From: an uncultured Nitrospiraceae bacterium
Lineage (GTDB): Bacteria; Nitrospirota; Thermodesulfovibrionia; Thermodesulfovibrionales; UBA6898
Length of the DNA: 64,000 nucleotides
Direction: 5' to 3'
Assembly (NCBI GenBank): GCA_963811165.1
Contig: CAWEQH010000010.1
Span: 256,001-320,000 of the forward strand
Shown in pieces: positions 40,019 to 52,606 of the stretch. How positions within the stretch are numbered: position 1 is the first letter of the stretch; each line of letters starts with the position of its first letter. Below the pieces are notes generated by a model. The model was given only the letters and a program-made list of their open reading frames with translations. It searched no databases and was not told the origin of the DNA. The position numbers and the translations under genes were made by a program.

Positions 40019-40144
40019 TATTTCTCATTTTAGATTGTGGAGTTTCTTTTCGCAAGCTCATGATTTGCAGTCATAATAGATTGGGCTATAATGTGCCTAG
40101 GCGAAAAAGACGAGCAATATCTATGCGGGGAAGGAGAGTACGGC

Positions 40145-40459
40145 ATGAATAGGAACATGAAATGGGGTCTTTTGGGCAGCGTGGTCGTCATTTGCGTTCT
40201 CATTTTTATATTTACACAGGGTTCACCCAACGGGGCGGAACTTTTTAGGAGCCAAGGGTGCATCAGTTGCCACAGCTTTAAGGGGAAGGGCGGAGAGCTA
40301 TGCCCTGATCTAACTGGAGTTACCGGTAGAAGAAGCGACAGTTGGATACGTGTACAGATAAAAGACTCCAAAAAACATAATCCGAACTCAAGAATGCCCA
40401 GCTTCGGGCATCTTTCCTACAGGGAGATAAGCGCAATAATCCGTTATTTGAAGTCCTAA
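40145..40459 (+). CDS. Small monoheme cytochrome c
   Basis: N-terminal TM helix, CISCH, PDLT, distal Met in RMP. Confidence 0.85.
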   Translation: MNRNMKWGLLGSVVVICVLIFIFTQGSPNGAELFRSQGCISCHSFKGKGGELCPDLTGVTGRRSDSWIRVQIKDSKKHNPNSRMPSFGHLSYREISAIIRYLKS

Positions 40460-40640: not shown

Positions 40641-40746
40641 GATTTTTTGCAAACAAATTGTTTACTAATTAATGCTAAAAAAATTGTTGCTTTTCGACAT
40701 CTTATGAACTAAGCTTTAAAAATAAAAACCATTGAGGGGGTGTTTT

Positions 40747-41913
40747 ATGAAAGATTTCTTGGATGGTCTTCCTGCAGAGCCTGGAGAATCCCTTGAGAGG
40801 CTCGCAAGAAGTGGTCTGTCGCGCAGAGATTTTCTTAAGTTCTGTACGGGCGTGGCGGTTATGCTGGGATTGCCCATAGGCATGGGCTCCAAAATCGCTG
40901 AGGCTGTAATGAGCGCCAAAAGGCCTCCTGTGCTTTGGCTGTCTGCCCAGGAGTGCACGGGCTGTACCGAGAGCCTCTTAAGAACAAATCATCCTACTCT
41001 TGACAAGTTGATCCTTGAGCTTATCTCTCTTGATTATCATGAAACCCTTGAGGCCGGGGCAGGGCATCAGGCCGAGGCCGCCCGGGTAAAGTCTATGCAG
41101 GAGAATAAGGGAAAATATATATTGGTGGTAGACGGCTCCATCCCTGTTAAGGACGGCGGAATATACTGCAAGATAGGCGGTAAAACCGCTCTTTCACTCT
41201 TAGAAGAAATGGGGTCCCAGGCAGCGGCAGTCATAGCCATCGGTTCCTGTGCCTCCTGGGGCGGCGTGCCTTCTGCAGATCCGAATCCGACCGGCGCTAC
41301 CCCGGTTCATGAAATCTTCAAGAGCAAGGGCATAAAAACACCTGTAGTAAATATTCCGGGATGTCCTCCGAACGGATATAATTTCCTGTCCACGGTACTG
41401 TACTTTGTGACGTTCAAAAAGCTTCCTGAGCTTGATGATCTAGGTCGTCCCAAATTTGCTTATGGCAGACTTATTCACGACAATTGCGAACGAAGGCCGC
41501 ATTTCGATGCGGGCAGATTTGCAAAAGAATTCGGCGATGAGGGCCACAGAAAAGGATATTGCCTTTACAAGCTCGGATGCAAAGGCCCTGAGACATATAA
41601 CAACTGCCCGACACTGCTCTTCAACGACGTCGGGGCCGGGGCATGGCCGGTAGGCACAGGACATCCTTGCTTCGGATGTTCAGAAAAAGGCGTCGGCTTC
41701 TCGGCAGCTCTATTCAGCCCGGCAAAGCTTAAAGACACAACGCCTTTTATAGGCTTCCCCGGTATAGCTGAGGATAAAGGCAAAGGTGCGACAATTGCTG
41801 GCGTTGCAGTGGTTGCAGGTCTTGCAGGGGCAGCGATAGGCGCTGGGGTTTCGACGGCAAAAAAACTCGACAAAGCGGATAAAGATAAGACCGGACCAAA
41901 GTCTAAGGAGTAG
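40747..41913 (+). CDS. hybO: [NiFe]-hydrogenase small subunit, Hyb type
   Basis: Tat signal SRRDFLK, AQECTGCTES, IGSCASWGG, PGCPP, HDNCER, CLYKLGCKGP; C-terminal anchor. Confidence 0.93.
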   Translation: MKDFLDGLPAEPGESLERLARSGLSRRDFLKFCTGVAVMLGLPIGMGSKIAEAVMSAKRPPVLWLSAQECTGCTESLLRTNHPTLDKLILELISLDYHETLEAGAGHQAEAARVKSMQENKGKYILVVDGSIPVKDGGIYCKIGGKTALSLLEEMGSQAAAVIAIGSCASWGGVPSADPNPTGATPVHEIFKSKGIKTPVVNIPGCPPNGYNFLSTVLYFVTFKKLPELDDLGRPKFAYGRLIHDNCERRPHFDAGRFAKEFGDEGHRKGYCLYKLGCKGPETYNNCPTLLFNDVGAGAWPVGTGHPCFGCSEKGVGFSAALFSPAKLKDTTPFIGFPGIAEDKGKGATIAGVAVVAGLAGAAIGAGVSTAKKLDKADKDKTGPKSKE

Positions 41914-41916
41914 GCC

Positions 41917-42882
41917 ATGGATATAAAAAGAAGAGATTTCTTGAAGATAGTTGGAGGCGGGGGTCTGCTCCTGGCGTCAAATATTGCGCCGGCGCTGGCG
42001 ATTTCAAGGCCTCCTAAGAGCATGCCTCCGGAAGCGGTCGGGATGTTTTACGATTCGACTATCTGCATAGGTTGTAAGGCCTGCCAGCACGCCTGTAAGC
42101 AGTTCAATGAAATGCCGGCAGAACATACCATCAGACCTCCGGATATGATGGATGAACTTTGGGACAACCCGGCAGACCTTTCGGGAAAGACACTGGAGAT
42201 CATTAAGGCTGTTAAGACAGGCCCGGGAGAGGAGAAGAACATAGACTTTGCATTTGTAAAGAGGAATTGCATGCATTGTGTTGATCCCGCATGCGTTTCG
42301 GCATGTCCGGTGTCGGCATTAAGGAAAGATCCCAAAACGGGTGTCGTGACTTACAATAAGAAGGCATGCATAGGCTGTCGTTACTGCCAGATGGCATGCC
42401 CGTTCAATATCCCTAAGACAGAGTGGGACAAGGCATTTCCTCAGATACGAAAGTGCGAGTTCTGCAACCATAGGTTTGCCGAGGGCAAATACTCGGCATG
42501 CTGTGAGTTCTGTCCTACAGGGGCTTCTATCTTCGGTCCCGCAAAGGACCTCCTCGCGGAAGCCAGGAAAAGGTTGACCCTCAGGCCCGGCGATTATTAC
42601 AACTATCCTCTGCAGACGGTTAACTCTAAGGACAAGATGCGACAGAAGGTAGCCCCGTACGTTAATCACGTTTACGGAGCAACCGAGGCCGGAGGCACGC
42701 AATTCATCATGCTGTCGGCTCTACCCTTTGACAGTCTCGGCATGCCCCCTCTGTCGGACAAACCTGATGCGGCATTTTCCGAAGGAATACAGCATACGCT
42801 TTATAAGGGGATGATTTTGCCCGCTGCAGTACTTGCCGGTCTCATGTTTGCGGCATACAAGAACACCAAGAAAGATGAATAA
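41917..42882 (+). CDS. hybA: Hydrogenase-2 4Fe-4S ferredoxin subunit
   Basis: Tat signal KRRDFLK, CIGCKAC, CMHCVDPACVSACP, CIGCRYCQMACP, KCEFC; C-terminal TM helix. Confidence 0.92.
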   Translation: MDIKRRDFLKIVGGGGLLLASNIAPALAISRPPKSMPPEAVGMFYDSTICIGCKACQHACKQFNEMPAEHTIRPPDMMDELWDNPADLSGKTLEIIKAVKTGPGEEKNIDFAFVKRNCMHCVDPACVSACPVSALRKDPKTGVVTYNKKACIGCRYCQMACPFNIPKTEWDKAFPQIRKCEFCNHRFAEGKYSACCEFCPTGASIFGPAKDLLAEARKRLTLRPGDYYNYPLQTVNSKDKMRQKVAPYVNHVYGATEAGGTQFIMLSALPFDSLGMPPLSDKPDAAFSEGIQHTLYKGMILPAAVLAGLMFAAYKNTKKDE

Positions 42883-42912: not shown

Positions 42913-44049
42913 ATGAGCGAACCCAAACCGATAGGAGGAAAAATAATCACAGCGCCGTTTCTTTTCTTTTCTGCGCTGGCGGCGATCGCCGTGATATTGA
43001 TTATCAAGCGTTTCATCTTCGGACTCGGCAACGTGACAAACCTGAACGACGGCTATCCCTGGGGAATCTGGATAGCCTATGATGTCGTAGTAGGAACGGC
43101 CTTTGCCTGCGGCGGATACGCAATCGCGCTTCTTGTATATATTTTTAACAAGGGGGAGTTTCACCCGTTCGTCAGGTCGGCCCTGCTGGCCAGCGCCTTC
43201 GGCTATACACTCGCCGGCGTGTCGATCTTCTTTGACGTAGGACGTTACTGGCAGGCGTATAACCTGTTTCTTCCTTGGTATTCGCAATTGAATTCGGTGA
43301 TGTTTGAGGTTGCCTTCTGCATCTCGCTGTACATCTTTGTATTATGGATAGAGTTTTCACCTTCGTTTATGGAGTGGATGAGCAAGAAGGGACTTGTCAA
43401 GACAATGAATAGGCTGATGTTTGTCTTCATTGCCATAGGAGTACTCCTCCCTACCATGCACCAGTCCTCACTGGGAACTCTTATGGTCGTAACCGGGCGT
43501 AAATTGCATCCTTTATGGCAGACGCAGATGATCCCGCTGCTTGCGTTGATTTCTGCCATAACGATGGGATACTCGATCGTTATCTTTGAAGCCATCGTCT
43601 CGTCGGTTTCTCTAAAAAGAGAGATAGAGGTGCCCCTGCTGTCCAAGCTTTCGGCACTGATCCCCTGGCTTATCGGGGCCTATCTTGTGGTGCGGTTCGG
43701 CGATCTTTTGTACAGAGGCCAACTGGGATTAGCCTTCACCAGCGGGTTTAAAGGCATAATGTTCATTATCGAAAATGTTCTTTACATAGTTCCATTGGTT
43801 ATCCTGTCATCCGCAAGCAGCAGGATGAGGCCAAAGATGCTGTTCGTTTCTGCCGTCATTATGCTTCTGGCGGGAGCGGTTTACCGTTTCGATACATTCC
43901 TTATAGGGTTCGACCCTGGCCCGGGCTGGCACTATTTCCCCTCGGCACAGGAAACGCTTATAACAGTGGGGCTGATATCTATGGAGATTGCCGGTTATAT
44001 GGTTATCGTTAAGAAACTACCTGTGCTGCCCGATTTGCGGCATGCATAA
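42913..44049 (+). CDS. hybB: Hydrogenase-2 integral membrane subunit (NrfD family)
   Basis: GLGNVTNLNDGYPWGIWI, DVGRYW, LPTMHQSSLG. Confidence 0.92.
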   Translation: MSEPKPIGGKIITAPFLFFSALAAIAVILIIKRFIFGLGNVTNLNDGYPWGIWIAYDVVVGTAFACGGYAIALLVYIFNKGEFHPFVRSALLASAFGYTLAGVSIFFDVGRYWQAYNLFLPWYSQLNSVMFEVAFCISLYIFVLWIEFSPSFMEWMSKKGLVKTMNRLMFVFIAIGVLLPTMHQSSLGTLMVVTGRKLHPLWQTQMIPLLALISAITMGYSIVIFEAIVSSVSLKREIEVPLLSKLSALIPWLIGAYLVVRFGDLLYRGQLGLAFTSGFKGIMFIIENVLYIVPLVILSSASSRMRPKMLFVSAVIMLLAGAVYRFDTFLIGFDPGPGWHYFPSAQETLITVGLISMEIAGYMVIVKKLPVLPDLRHA

Positions 44050-44067: not shown

Positions 44068-45768
44068 ATGGCAAAAAGAATAGTTGTTGATCCCGTAACA
44101 AGAATAGAGGGACATCTGAGGATTGACTGCGAAGTTGATGGCGGCAAAGTCACAAACGCCTGGTCTTCCGGGCAGATGTGGCGAGGGATAGAGGTTATCC
44201 TCAAGGGTCGCGATCCGCGCGATGCGTGGCTATACACCCAGCGCTTCTGCGGCGTCTGAACGACGGTCCACGCACTGGCTTCAGTGCGTTCGGTAGAAAA
44301 CGCCCTGGGGATGGAGGTCCCCGTGAACGCCCAATATATAAGGAACATGATGATGGGCGCTCACGCAACACATGACCATATCGTCCATTTTTATCATCTT
44401 GCCGCGCTCGATTGGGTGGATATCGTCTCGGCCCTCAAGGCCGATGCAAGAGCGGTTTCGAACCTGGGCCAGAAGCTTTCTCCATGGACGGGGAACAGCT
44501 ATAGCGAGGTAAAGGCATCTCAAGACAGGCTGAAGACTTTTGTGGGTTCAGGCCAGCTCGGTGTGTATGGAAGCGGCTACTGGGGCCATCCGGCCATGAA
44601 GCTTTCGCCCGAAGTGAACATGCTTGCGGCCCATCATTATCTTCAGGCGCTTGAGTACCAGAGGGAGATTAATAAAGTCGTCGCAATTCTCGGTTCCAAG
44701 ACCCCTCATATACAGAACGTGGCCGTGGGGGGAGTTTCCAATGCCATCAACCTAGACAGTCCTTCGACTCTTAATATGGAAAGACTGTATTATATCAAGA
44801 CGCTCATCGACAAGGTCGGAGACTTCGTTGAAAATGTTCTTCTCGTCGACACAGCTGCGGTCGCGGCATTCTACGCGGAGTGGACGAAGTATGGTGCGGG
44901 TGTGACAAATTACCTTTCAGTTCCGGATATGCCGATGGATACGAAGGGGACGACCTTTGCGCTTCCCGGCGGTTACATTCCGAACGGAGACATAGGAAAG
45001 TTCCAGGCGATCAAGAGTTATCAGGACCCTTTCTTCAGGGATAGCGTCAAAGAGAGCATCAAGCATTCCTGGTACGACGGCGACTGGGACCGCCACCCGT
45101 TTGAAGAAGATACTGTCCCAAAATATACCGACTTTCAGGACAAGGGAAAGTATTCATGGGTCAAGTCGCCGACCTTCAAGGGGAAACCTGCACAGGTGGG
45201 GCCGCTGGCGAATGTCCTTTGTATGTTTGCGGCAGGTCACGAGCCTACAAAGAAATACGCGACGAAGATGCTCGATACAATAAGTGCAGTAGCAGGTACT
45301 AAAGTCGGATTGGCGGCACTGCATTCGACTATTGGGAGAATCGGTGCAAGGTCGATCAGGTGCGCGGTCCTCTTCGATACCTTAAAATCGCAGTGGCAGG
45401 CGCTTGTAGAGAATATCTCGAAGGGAGATGTCAAGACCTTCAACCATCCGACTTTCCCGGCCGGGGAACAGAGGGGCTATGGCTTTCATGAGGCCCCAAG
45501 GGGCGCGCTCTCCCATTGGATCGTGATCAAGGACGGCGTAATAAAGAATTATCAGGCCGTTGTCCCGTCGACCTGGAATGCAGGTCCCAGAAATAGCGAA
45601 GAGGCACTCGGGCCGTACGAGGCTTCCCTTATCGGAAACCCGGTGATAGATGCCGAAAAACCTCTCGAGGTTCTGCGGACGGTGCATTCTTTTGACCCCT
45701 GTCTTGCCTGCGCGATCCATATGGTAGATAAGACCAACAATGAAATCGTGAAGGTTAAGGCGGTATGA
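44068..45768 (+). CDS. hybC: [NiFe]-hydrogenase large subunit, Hyb type; in-frame TGA at codon 64 read as selenocysteine (566 aa)
   Basis: ORFs 44068-44259 and 44284-45768 are in the same frame. [47 protein letters not shown] plus a 15-aa cleavable tail. Confidence 0.9.
44270..44289 (+). promoter_or_regulatory. Putative bacterial SECIS element of hybC
   Basis: Perfect 8-bp stem ACGCACTG / CAGTGCGT with loop GCTT (G first); the loop starts 18 nt after the UGA. Confidence 0.75.
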
Positions 45769-45775
45769 AGACGGC

Positions 45776-46297
45776 ATGAACGTTCTTGTGCTGGGAATAG
45801 GCAACGTCCTCATGATGGACGACAGCGTGGGTGTGCGCGCAATCGATGAGCTTGAGAGAAGATACCATTTTCCCGATGAGGTGGAACTTCTGGACGGCGG
45901 GACATCCGGTATCGAACTTCTTTCATATTTCGGCGACCGAGATTATTTGATTATCATCGATGCACTGAAATCCGGGTCCGCTCCGGGGACGGTTGTGAGG
46001 GTGGAAGGGGATGATGTCCCCGCCAGATTTATGACGAGGATATCGCCCCACCAACTCGGCTTGTCCGACGTACTTGCTGCGGCCACAATTTCCGGCCGGC
46101 TCCCGGAAAATTTGGTGCTCTTCGGGGTCGAGCCAAAAACAGTAGAACTCGGCCTAGGACTTTCCAGTGAGGTTCGGGCAGCCCTCGACAAAGTCGTTGG
46201 GGTAGTAATAGAAGAACTCAGACGTATCGGCTATGCAGGAGAGCCGCTTGAGACCGTATCGTCCGGGAAGACACTATGGGAGAAGGTGCAGGGGTAA
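45776..46297 (+). CDS. hybD: Hydrogenase maturation protease
   Basis: VLGIGNVLMMDDSVG, LDGGTSG, IIIDA, SPHQ. Confidence 0.93.
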   Translation: MNVLVLGIGNVLMMDDSVGVRAIDELERRYHFPDEVELLDGGTSGIELLSYFGDRDYLIIIDALKSGSAPGTVVRVEGDDVPARFMTRISPHQLGLSDVLAAATISGRLPENLVLFGVEPKTVELGLGLSSEVRAALDKVVGVVIEELRRIGYAGEPLETVSSGKTLWEKVQG

Positions 46298-51281: not shown

Positions 51282-52606
51282 TGTTGTCAACAAATAGAGT
51301 TGTCCGGTTTTAGAGCAGATAAACTGTCCGGTCCGTAGCTAGTTGATATCAGGCTGCTTTTTTGTTTAGTTTTGAGACCTCCTTCCCCTTGGAATTAAAG
51401 GCTATCAATTTTCTGTGCCCATGGAATATTGCTAGGTTGCCGTTTGGATAGCGATGGACACGGACCTTTACTTTGACATAGTGAAAGCGATATTTATCGG
51501 CTGGAATCTGAAGGGTCAGGGCATCGAATTTGACACAGTTGTTGTTGCCGACCGTCCGCTCATATTGTTCGCAGAGGATGTCTTGAAGAGGTGTTCCGGC
51601 CCAAGGGACAAACATACTGGCAGGCTCCTCAGCGGATACGGCAAATTCATCGTTAAAGGCGGGAAGATACACATCACGGATATAGGCATTGGCCTGTTTC
51701 ATCTCAGTGATGCCGGCCATGGCAAGTTCCTTTACAAGGCGCTCCTGATGAGTGCGGAAGGCGCGTTCAGAGCGTCCTCGGGCCTCAGGGGAATAGGCCG
51801 GGATCATCTCTATCCCTAACTGCCTCATGGCACGGCCAAATTGTGTCAGATTCTCCTTATCCACCTTCCCCCCAGCCTCTGGGGTATTCCAGTAGTGGCT
51901 GCCGCGATCCGTGTACAGTGAGGCAAATACTCCATGCTCGACGATCACCTCACTAACTCCCTGAAAACTGCTCTGAGTTCCTTCTTCATCGATAAAAAAC
52001 ATCGAGTAATGTCCATTGCTGGCATCATCCATTGTTACAATCAGATCCCATAACTTCCCAGGCACCCACTCATGTGTGGAGCCGTCCTGATGCAGCATCA
52101 TGCCAATATACGGAGCTCTTGGACGCTGTCTCCGGTGGGTTCCCTTTCTCGAATCCTTATGCACAAGTCCCTTGCCCTGAAGAGTATTCTTTACCCAGGT
52201 GTAGCTCCTCATGCCCTCATGAGCCCGCCTGTACCAACTGTAAAAGTGCTTAACCGTCAATCCCTGGTACCTGCGGCTGTATAAATCTGCCAGGGCCATT
52301 ACCTCATCAACAGGCGCACTGCGGTGCGATATCTGTCCTAAACGCCTATCAATAAGTCCCTCCATCCCCTGCTCCTCATATCGAACCAGATATCGACGGT
52401 ACGTCCGGTCGCATACTCCAAGCAGCCTCGCCGCTTCCTCCTGCGTCAATCTCCCCCTTTGACATCCCTCATATGCTTCCTCAAATCTCATCTTCCGTAC
52501 CTCCTGTAGTAGTGCTGTCCTCTTCATCAATGGCACCTCCGTGCCATCCAATCTTAACCGGACAGTTTATGTGCTACAGATACGGACAGTTTATTGGCTC
52601 GCTACA
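51282..52606 (-). mobile_element. Complete 1325-bp IS1202-family (ISNCY) insertion sequence with a 16-bp target-site duplication
   Basis: TGT...ACA ends; subterminal ATAAACTGTCCG repeats at both ends; TCGGCACGACCAGGTG flanks both sides (51266-51281 and 52607-52622). Confidence 0.9.
51349..52551 (-). CDS. ISNCY/IS1202-type DDE transposase
   Basis: HTH (LTQEEAARLLGV), MLHQDGSTHEW, TMDDAS, LYTDRGS, SPEARGRSER. Confidence 0.92.
   Translation of the reverse strand: MDGTEVPLMKRTALLQEVRKMRFEEAYEGCQRGRLTQEEAARLLGVCDRTYRRYLVRYEEQGMEGLIDRRLGQISHRSAPVDEVMALADLYSRRYQGLTVKHFYSWYRRAHEGMRSYTWVKNTLQGKGLVHKDSRKGTHRRQRPRAPYIGMMLHQDGSTHEWVPGKLWDLIVTMDDASNGHYSMFFIDEEGTQSSFQGVSEVIVEHGVFASLYTDRGSHYWNTPEAGGKVDKENLTQFGRAMRQLGIEMIPAYSPEARGRSERAFRTHQERLVKELAMAGITEMKQANAYIRDVYLPAFNDEFAVSAEEPASMFVPWAGTPLQDILCEQYERTVGNNNCVKFDALTLQIPADKYRFHYVKVKVRVHRYPNGNLAIFHGHRKLIAFNSKGKEVSKLNKKAA

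Follow-up and report, generated by a model that had tools for sequence, protein, structure and literature searches.

We found that hybC in the window, by which we mean the whole stretch of 64,000 nucleotides of DNA that was analysed, probably encodes an intact, membrane-bound [NiFe]-hydrogenase of group 1c in which an in-frame UGA, codon 64, is read as selenocysteine (Sec), placing selenium in one Ni-Fe bridge. The TGA is real, conserved and almost certainly recoded. A first-pass annotation had proposed a natural group 1c enzyme with a selenium-bridged site. Recoding, the bridging position and the group 1c assignment all stand, but Sec is not the sole residue available for the codon, because the genome also carries a selC*-like tRNA. 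Below, G000 is the genome carrying the window, and other G, L and P labels denote relatives' genomes, loci and database proteins.

The hybC frame (44068..45768, plus strand, as are all features of the operon given below) comprises 566 codons, and the TGA at codon 64 (44257..44259) is its sole internal stop; the terminal stop codon of the gene is also TGA. Over its first 460 residues, HybC aligns with its E. coli counterpart without gaps, which sets codons 61 and 64 on C61 and C64 of the E. coli protein. Its L1 motif reads RFCGV-U-TTVH and its L2 motif (DPCxxCxxH, 45694..45720) reads DPCLACAIH, with both ligands, C545 and C548, encoded as Cys. By homology, Cys61 (TGC, 44248..44250) would be the first L1 ligand, terminal on Ni, and codon 64 the second, Ni-Fe bridging, with Sec as the predicted residue; the bridging role of the second L1 ligand is also described in the accessible part of PMC13582414. 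The four-Cys ligand set of L1 and L2 is thus not fully encoded in hybC, since the second L1 codon is TGA. His551 is followed by a 15-residue C-terminal extension. The gene thereby shows what is expected of a selenoprotein gene, an in-frame UGA at a conserved Cys with the frame kept on both sides. The earlier reading of hybC as one frame broken only by this TGA, with the codon on the second L1 Cys and L2 intact, was therefore correct.

The genes around hybC match the subunits of hydrogenase-2 (Hyd-2). The operon contains hybO (40732..41913), a small subunit with a Tat signal (TIGR00391, 453.6 bits, over cut-off; best match NF007779; TIGR01409), hybA (41917..42882), a periplasmic ferredoxin subunit (NF008134, 427 bits, cut-off 263), hybB (42913..44049), a membrane subunit (NF008133, 542 bits, cut-off 450), and, behind hybC, the maturation endopeptidase gene hybD (45776..46297; TIGR00140, 158.2 bits, cut-off 151.8). 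All four are intact, as had been noted from the sequence. A gene for a small single-haem c-type cytochrome (40091..40459) lies upstream of hyb both here and in G004, and hypD is found elsewhere on the same contig. For HybC itself, the best of 13 NCBIfam models was NF007778 with 876 bits, under its cut-off of 969, and in a PDB comparison the best 7 of 40 sequences were Hyd-2, led by 6EN9. Gene set, model and structure matches agree with the group 1c anatomy claimed earlier. Compared with E. coli Hyd-2 (HybOABC, group 1c; 6EN9, 6EHQ), operon order, subunits and L1 numbering are the same, and the two-Cys L2, E14, D103 and the canopy Arg motif are retained in the alignment to E. coli HybC; the difference is codon 64, which is UGA and is accompanied by a conserved hairpin. 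The HydDB table, as far as PMC5037454 was accessible, places [NiFeSe] variants under 1a, 3a and 3c and not under 1c. Promoter and terminator scans at hyb gave values near shuffle level. A lookup of RNA data listed none for hybC, a result that has no bearing on expression. Further along the window, an ORF of 400 codons on the minus strand (51349-52551) is transposase-like, of integrase-core type by reading of its sequence.

In the proposed mechanism, SelB would bind the hybC hairpin and bring Sec-tRNA to UGA64. With the help of Hyp proteins, C61/U64/C545/C548 would then receive Fe(CN)2CO and Ni, HybD would remove the tail after His551, and the Tat signal of HybO would export the HybO-HybC dimer. 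Electrons would presumably reach the quinone pool by way of HybA and HybB, as they do in E. coli Hyd-2. These steps are drawn from what is established for Hyd-2 and for Sec insertion in general.

The hairpin predicted to serve as the upper stem-loop of a SECIS element lies at 44270..44289 (plus strand), where 44270-44277 pairs with 44282-44289 in 8 bp around the loop GCTT. It starts 10 nt past the TGA, as the first-pass annotation had described, and its loop 18 nt past it. Among 4766 TGA codons that close open frames of at least 100 codons in G000, 63 have a hairpin of at least 8 bp with a G loop at that distance, and 13 have one as stable as that of hybC. We rejected folding energy as evidence for a SECIS element: taken as a whole, the 54-nt fold is matched in stability by shuffled sequences (z 0.29; 113 of 200 shuffles fold as well), so that the case rests on position and conservation. 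A SECIS element is expected to be a downstream hairpin with G at loop position 1 or 2, and hybC agrees with this both in position and in synonymous conservation. The loop position of +18 is also that of one of the two formate dehydrogenase selenoprotein genes of G000, the loops of which lie at +18 and +23.

Conservation was examined after six duplicate pairs had been taken out of 143 rows. In 25 distinct full-length genes of clade A, to which the window's gene belongs, third positions of the fourfold-degenerate codons within 69-75 show 84-100% conservation, while none of 156 fourfold sites outside codons 62-76 reaches 90% (mean 48%). The 64 Cys-type Hyb genes show no such peak at codons 69-75, where they vary freely. 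Judged by these silent sites, the clade-A hairpin is under selection as RNA. The first-pass annotation had suggested looking for conservation or covariation of the hairpin; the former is strong, but the stem is nearly invariant in 18 aligned clade-A genes and offers no two-sided compensatory change. In clade B (six Hyb genes), a near-identical peptide is encoded with other synonymous codons and forms another hairpin with its loop at +23, and HyaABC-type genes have a third hairpin, its loop also near +23. Only a weak hairpin was found in the TGA64 genes L080 and L105.

The genome is equipped to decode the codon as Sec. G000 has selA, selB, tRNA-Sec and selD, the last with a TGA of its own, so that all four genes that the first-pass annotation had proposed to look for are present. 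Among 61 relatives, selA scores over cut-off in 60, and the exception has no hydrogenase match; in distant TGA64 genomes, selA was found in 5 of 5 and a tRNA-Sec model match in 4 of 5. A search for tRNA-Sec in five genomes missed it in four, all of which are drafts and three of which have a selC*-like tRNA. Six other likely selenoprotein genes of G000 (C4:318259, C8:341463, C10:105465, C8:483419, C10:825549 and C1:386934) comprise MsrA, two formate dehydrogenases, SelD and two weaker candidates (UGC, UxxC), with names based on motifs except for SelD. A tRNA-Cys(aca) called by ARAGORN at G000:C4:644207-644298 has poor stems, lies inside a coding region and is probably false.

A different residue could be placed at the same codon if a tRNA like selC*/tRNA-ReC, together with SelB and the same hairpin, inserted mainly Cys, which would leave an ordinary all-sulfur Hyd-2. 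We consider this unlikely, though more probable than the other alternatives. At G000:C4:471036-471130 (L009:1501-1595), G000 carries a Sec-like tRNA with a GCA anticodon, U73, a long variable arm and a 4-bp D stem, near genes for LysR, a carboxymuconolactone-decarboxylase-like protein, a rhodanese and a YedF-like protein (the last two named by reading their sequences). By its features, this second Sec-like tRNA fits the selC*/tRNA-ReC type, which is reported in the accessible literature to place Cys at SECIS-marked UGA codons. According to the available part of Mukai et al. 2017 (PMC5389517, cited for selC* tRNA-Cys together with PMC7609411), selC* occurs in Thermodesulfovibrio and Nitrospirae; the likeness to that system extends to the Sec-like body, U73, the GCA anticodon and a genome with full selABCD. 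PMC13582414, citing Vargas-Rodriguez 2018, says in the part available that both anticodon types of tRNA-ReC recode UGA, and names Cys insertion by tRNA-ReC as a limit of predictions such as ours. We found a selC*-like tRNA in 8 of 17 genomes with a full-length CxxU gene. G053 and G006 have it, but tRNA-Sec was not found in them.

Several observations speak against Cys as the main residue. No selC*-like tRNA turned up in the other 9 of these 17 genomes, and a deeper search in five CxxU genomes, including the single-contig G042, returned none (0 of 5); selC* thus does not seem to be needed for the UGA. The tRNA is also present in G045 and G057, whose hydrogenase match has Cys codons. Linkage of selB* and cysS* to selC* is described for some lineages only; G000 has neither gene adjoining the tRNA, and one selB scores over cut-off genome-wide. 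Relative to the copies in relatives, the 3' acceptor strand of the G000 tRNA is longer by one base. Finally, retaining a UGA and a hairpin merely to insert Cys would bring no clear benefit. Motif and homology scans of G000 recovered no Cys-type Hyb copy, only a distant large subunit, which suggests that selC* would be the only route to a Hyb enzyme without selenium. Taken with these points, Sec remains the residue that we favour at codon 64.

Some features of the tRNA and synthetase genes stand by themselves. Transfer RNAs resembling selC* are longer by about 10-32 bases in L195 (G041:C1:1469861-1469987), G043, G044 and G048; in G041 the extra bases sit in the variable arm. We rejected G041, a single-contig UxxU genome, as an example free of selC*, because a covariance model found the copy with its long variable arm. 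G000 also has a second cysS-like gene of 404 residues (C10:697737-698951; L042:1498-2712), unlinked to selC*, which is without the C-terminal domain and has changed residues near the zinc site.

The TGA recurs far beyond the window. Among 61 genomes, full-length orthologues at 84-100% identity read TGC61/TGA64 in 17 of 17 cases; the G046 orthologue, at 73% identity, reads TGC/TGC and has a different sequence behind it. In 54 genomes of the family, all 28 full-length orthologues contain one TGA, the position of which was read in 15 of the 28. At the level of the phylum (301 genomes), the 101 matches listed (E 1.4e-56 or better; 17 more went unlisted) contain one TGA in 31 cases, two in 37 and none in 33. 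From these we retrieved 22 loci with TGA, and in them every TGA falls on an L1 ligand. Within the phylum of G339 (301 genomes), a single TGA is present in 8 of 96 matches and a pair in 4, with the position read for G339 only. A scan of 10 of the 64 parts of a genome collection kept 80 loci, 65 with TGC or TGT and 15 with TGA64, and records titled Nitrospirae, Desulfobulbus, Desulfobacca, Rokubacteria and Nitrospinaceae are among those with TGA64. The comparison of TGA with TGY across homologues that had been proposed earlier thus finds TGA64 in several genera, families and phyla. The closest titled record to HybC comes from a Thermodesulfovibrionales genome (95% over the first 150 residues).

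This distribution decides against a sequencing error or nonsense mutation that would make hybC a pseudogene or split gene. Such a reading could appeal to the single assembly and to gene callers, which choose an internal start and predict a protein of 494 residues; forms of 485-494 residues without L1 make up 25 of the 120 best database matches, much as the first-pass annotation had expected of annotation pipelines. However, the same codon is TGA across the taxa listed above, the remaining frame and the operon are intact, the nucleotides behind the TGA are strongly selected, and the short product would have lost two of the four metal ligands. The TGA itself is seen in a public contig identical to the window over 44193-44427 (depth 3.2; possibly from the source sample), and a second public contig across that stretch has 33 differences, none of those listed being at the TGA codon. 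Judging from this conservation, we regard an error or pseudogene as already refuted and its probability as very low. A general reading of TGA as Trp or Gly, or leaky read-through, is even more improbable: we found no point in its support, hybC itself stops at TGA, tRNA-Sec is the only UCA-anticodon tRNA found in G000, and the second-ligand codon is only TGC, TGT or TGA in 143 tabulated L1 motifs, in a pattern that itself selects C or U. The selenoprotein genes of G000 likewise suggest that TGA is a stop throughout the genome unless a SECIS element marks it.

How the L1 UGA arose was addressed with trees. In a tree of 125 proteins, the state of ligand 2 changes six times, and among the Hyb rows four changes are required by starred branches. 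With 43 chosen rows, a single clade for 13 chosen Hyb UGA rows, a group named after the first tree, was rejected (AU p 5e-5), and a single origin of the Hya-type UGA rows was not (p 0.365). Gains and losses of the L1 UGA cannot be told apart by tree counts. Because their hairpin registers differ, we favour separate gains in clades A and B. Comparison of the genes indicates that several Hyb lineages, whose hairpins differ, have a UGA in L1. Clade A also holds database proteins with Cys64, among them P0002, which groups as sister to the window's protein at the end of a long branch; selenium therefore does not appear essential. P0002, P0122 and P0124 all have Cys64, are 89% identical to the window's protein and lie on a long branch inside the UGA clade; their Cys64 is possibly a reversion. 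Residues shared by Sec-type Hyb proteins (e.g. M96, Y167, I425) were rejected as a Sec signature, being indistinguishable from shared ancestry.

Two recoded ligands were found only in HyaABC-type enzymes, where UxxU is present in 16 full-length genes that form one clade. In G004, hyb (CxxU) is directly followed by hya (UxxU), and this UxxU hya operon is absent from the corresponding place in the window. The HyaABC-type group 1 UxxU loci are L162:9898-13400 (G004:C22), L032-L040 and L187-L193; a further HyaABC-type clade, L175-L181, is CxxU and has the same hairpin as the UxxU clade. The Hyb gene of G343, with two TGA codons, was rejected as a Hyb UxxU because the second TGA is a stop past a frame break; this locus, L211 (G343:C18), is a Hyb CxxU gene with its frame break near codon 226. 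Tentatively, and with more doubt than confidence, these genes might be seen as one Nitrospirota family of selenium-bridged uptake hydrogenases (Hyb CxxU; Hya CxxU/UxxU), in which the UGA would have been gained or lost several times, the hairpins differing where the peptide is the same, and in which tRNA-Sec and a selC*-like tRNA would compete at the same UGA to give a selenium or a sulfur bridge according to selenium supply.

We compared the enzyme with known systems. Canonical [NiFeSe]-hydrogenases (Hys, 1a; 3a, 3c) likewise have a Sec codon for one large-subunit Ni ligand, and according to the text available their Sec is the terminal L2 ligand (UxxC), with Ser in place of the canopy Asp (Hyd-1 D118). 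In contrast, the L2 of the window's enzyme is CxxC, its D103 is kept and aligned with D103 of Hyd-2, and HybC scores 357 bits on NF045518, the cut-off of which is 780. In the literature consulted, all characterised natural [NiFeSe]-hydrogenases have selenium at the terminal L2 ligand; PMC8020662 argues that this position is special, and selenoproteome reviews, in the portions available, list hydrogenase large subunits as UxxC only.

Sec at the second L1 ligand has been predicted before. In the available part of Takano et al. 2026 (PMC13582414), 47 group 4 enzymes have a predicted L1 Sec, groups 1-3 being excluded, and UXXU is called previously unrecognised, with the remark that tRNA-ReC may yield Cys. 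The group 4 CXXU/UXXC/UXXU enzymes resemble ours in the predicted Sec at the second L1 ligand, an apical-loop G, selABCD, tRNA-ReC in some genomes and patchy gains or losses, as far as that text goes; the window's enzyme differs as an exported uptake type with a codon fixed across a family. The same source cites Baltazar et al. 2011 for two group 1 sequences and one group 3 sequence with an N-terminal CXXU, and Evans 2021 (PMC8020662), in the part available, cites Baltazar 2011 for the other bridging Cys, C579. Should both group 1 sequences turn out to be Hyb-type, the window's enzyme would be less novel. We found no paper on a natural Hyb with an L1 Sec or on group 1 UxxU in a search that covered mostly titles and the opening lines of abstracts, with few subscription journals, and the accessible portions of PMC4730141, PMC9437257, PMC8762117 and PMC11291895 contain nothing on a bridging-Sec Hyb variant. 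The earlier statement that the variant was not known as characterised therefore holds for natural enzymes in the literature found, but CxxU had already been predicted and C79U engineered. The window's enzyme is a Hyd-2 variant that was predicted in passing and is uncharacterised in the literature found.

An engineered counterpart exists in the C79U variant of E. coli Hyd-1 (Evans et al. 2021, PMC8020662), an active enzyme with Sec at the equivalent ligand; it is artificial and built on a group 1d scaffold, whereas the window's gene is natural and under selection. As reported in the accessible part of that paper, C79U is the most active of four Sec variants, at 13% of native, has a lower apparent KM for H2 and a higher activation enthalpy, and is almost inactivated at 10% O2, being slower and less O2-tolerant than native Hyd-1. 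The benefit of a selenium bridge is hence not evident. The lower KM and the near-inactivation by O2 point to H2 scavenging rather than to O2 protection, and the natural enzyme may differ. By analogy, our guess is that the selenium bridge might raise H2 affinity in anoxic, low-H2 habitats and would not protect from O2.

That a lineage has a UGA fixed at the bridging ligand of a Hyd-2-type enzyme suggests that selection found a use for the selenium bridge, and hybC offers a natural scaffold, close to the well-studied Hyd-2, in which effects of such a bridge on H2 affinity, catalytic bias and O2 damage may be studied. Because gene callers shorten 25 of the 120 best database matches, H2 uptake by sediment Nitrospirota has probably been under-counted.
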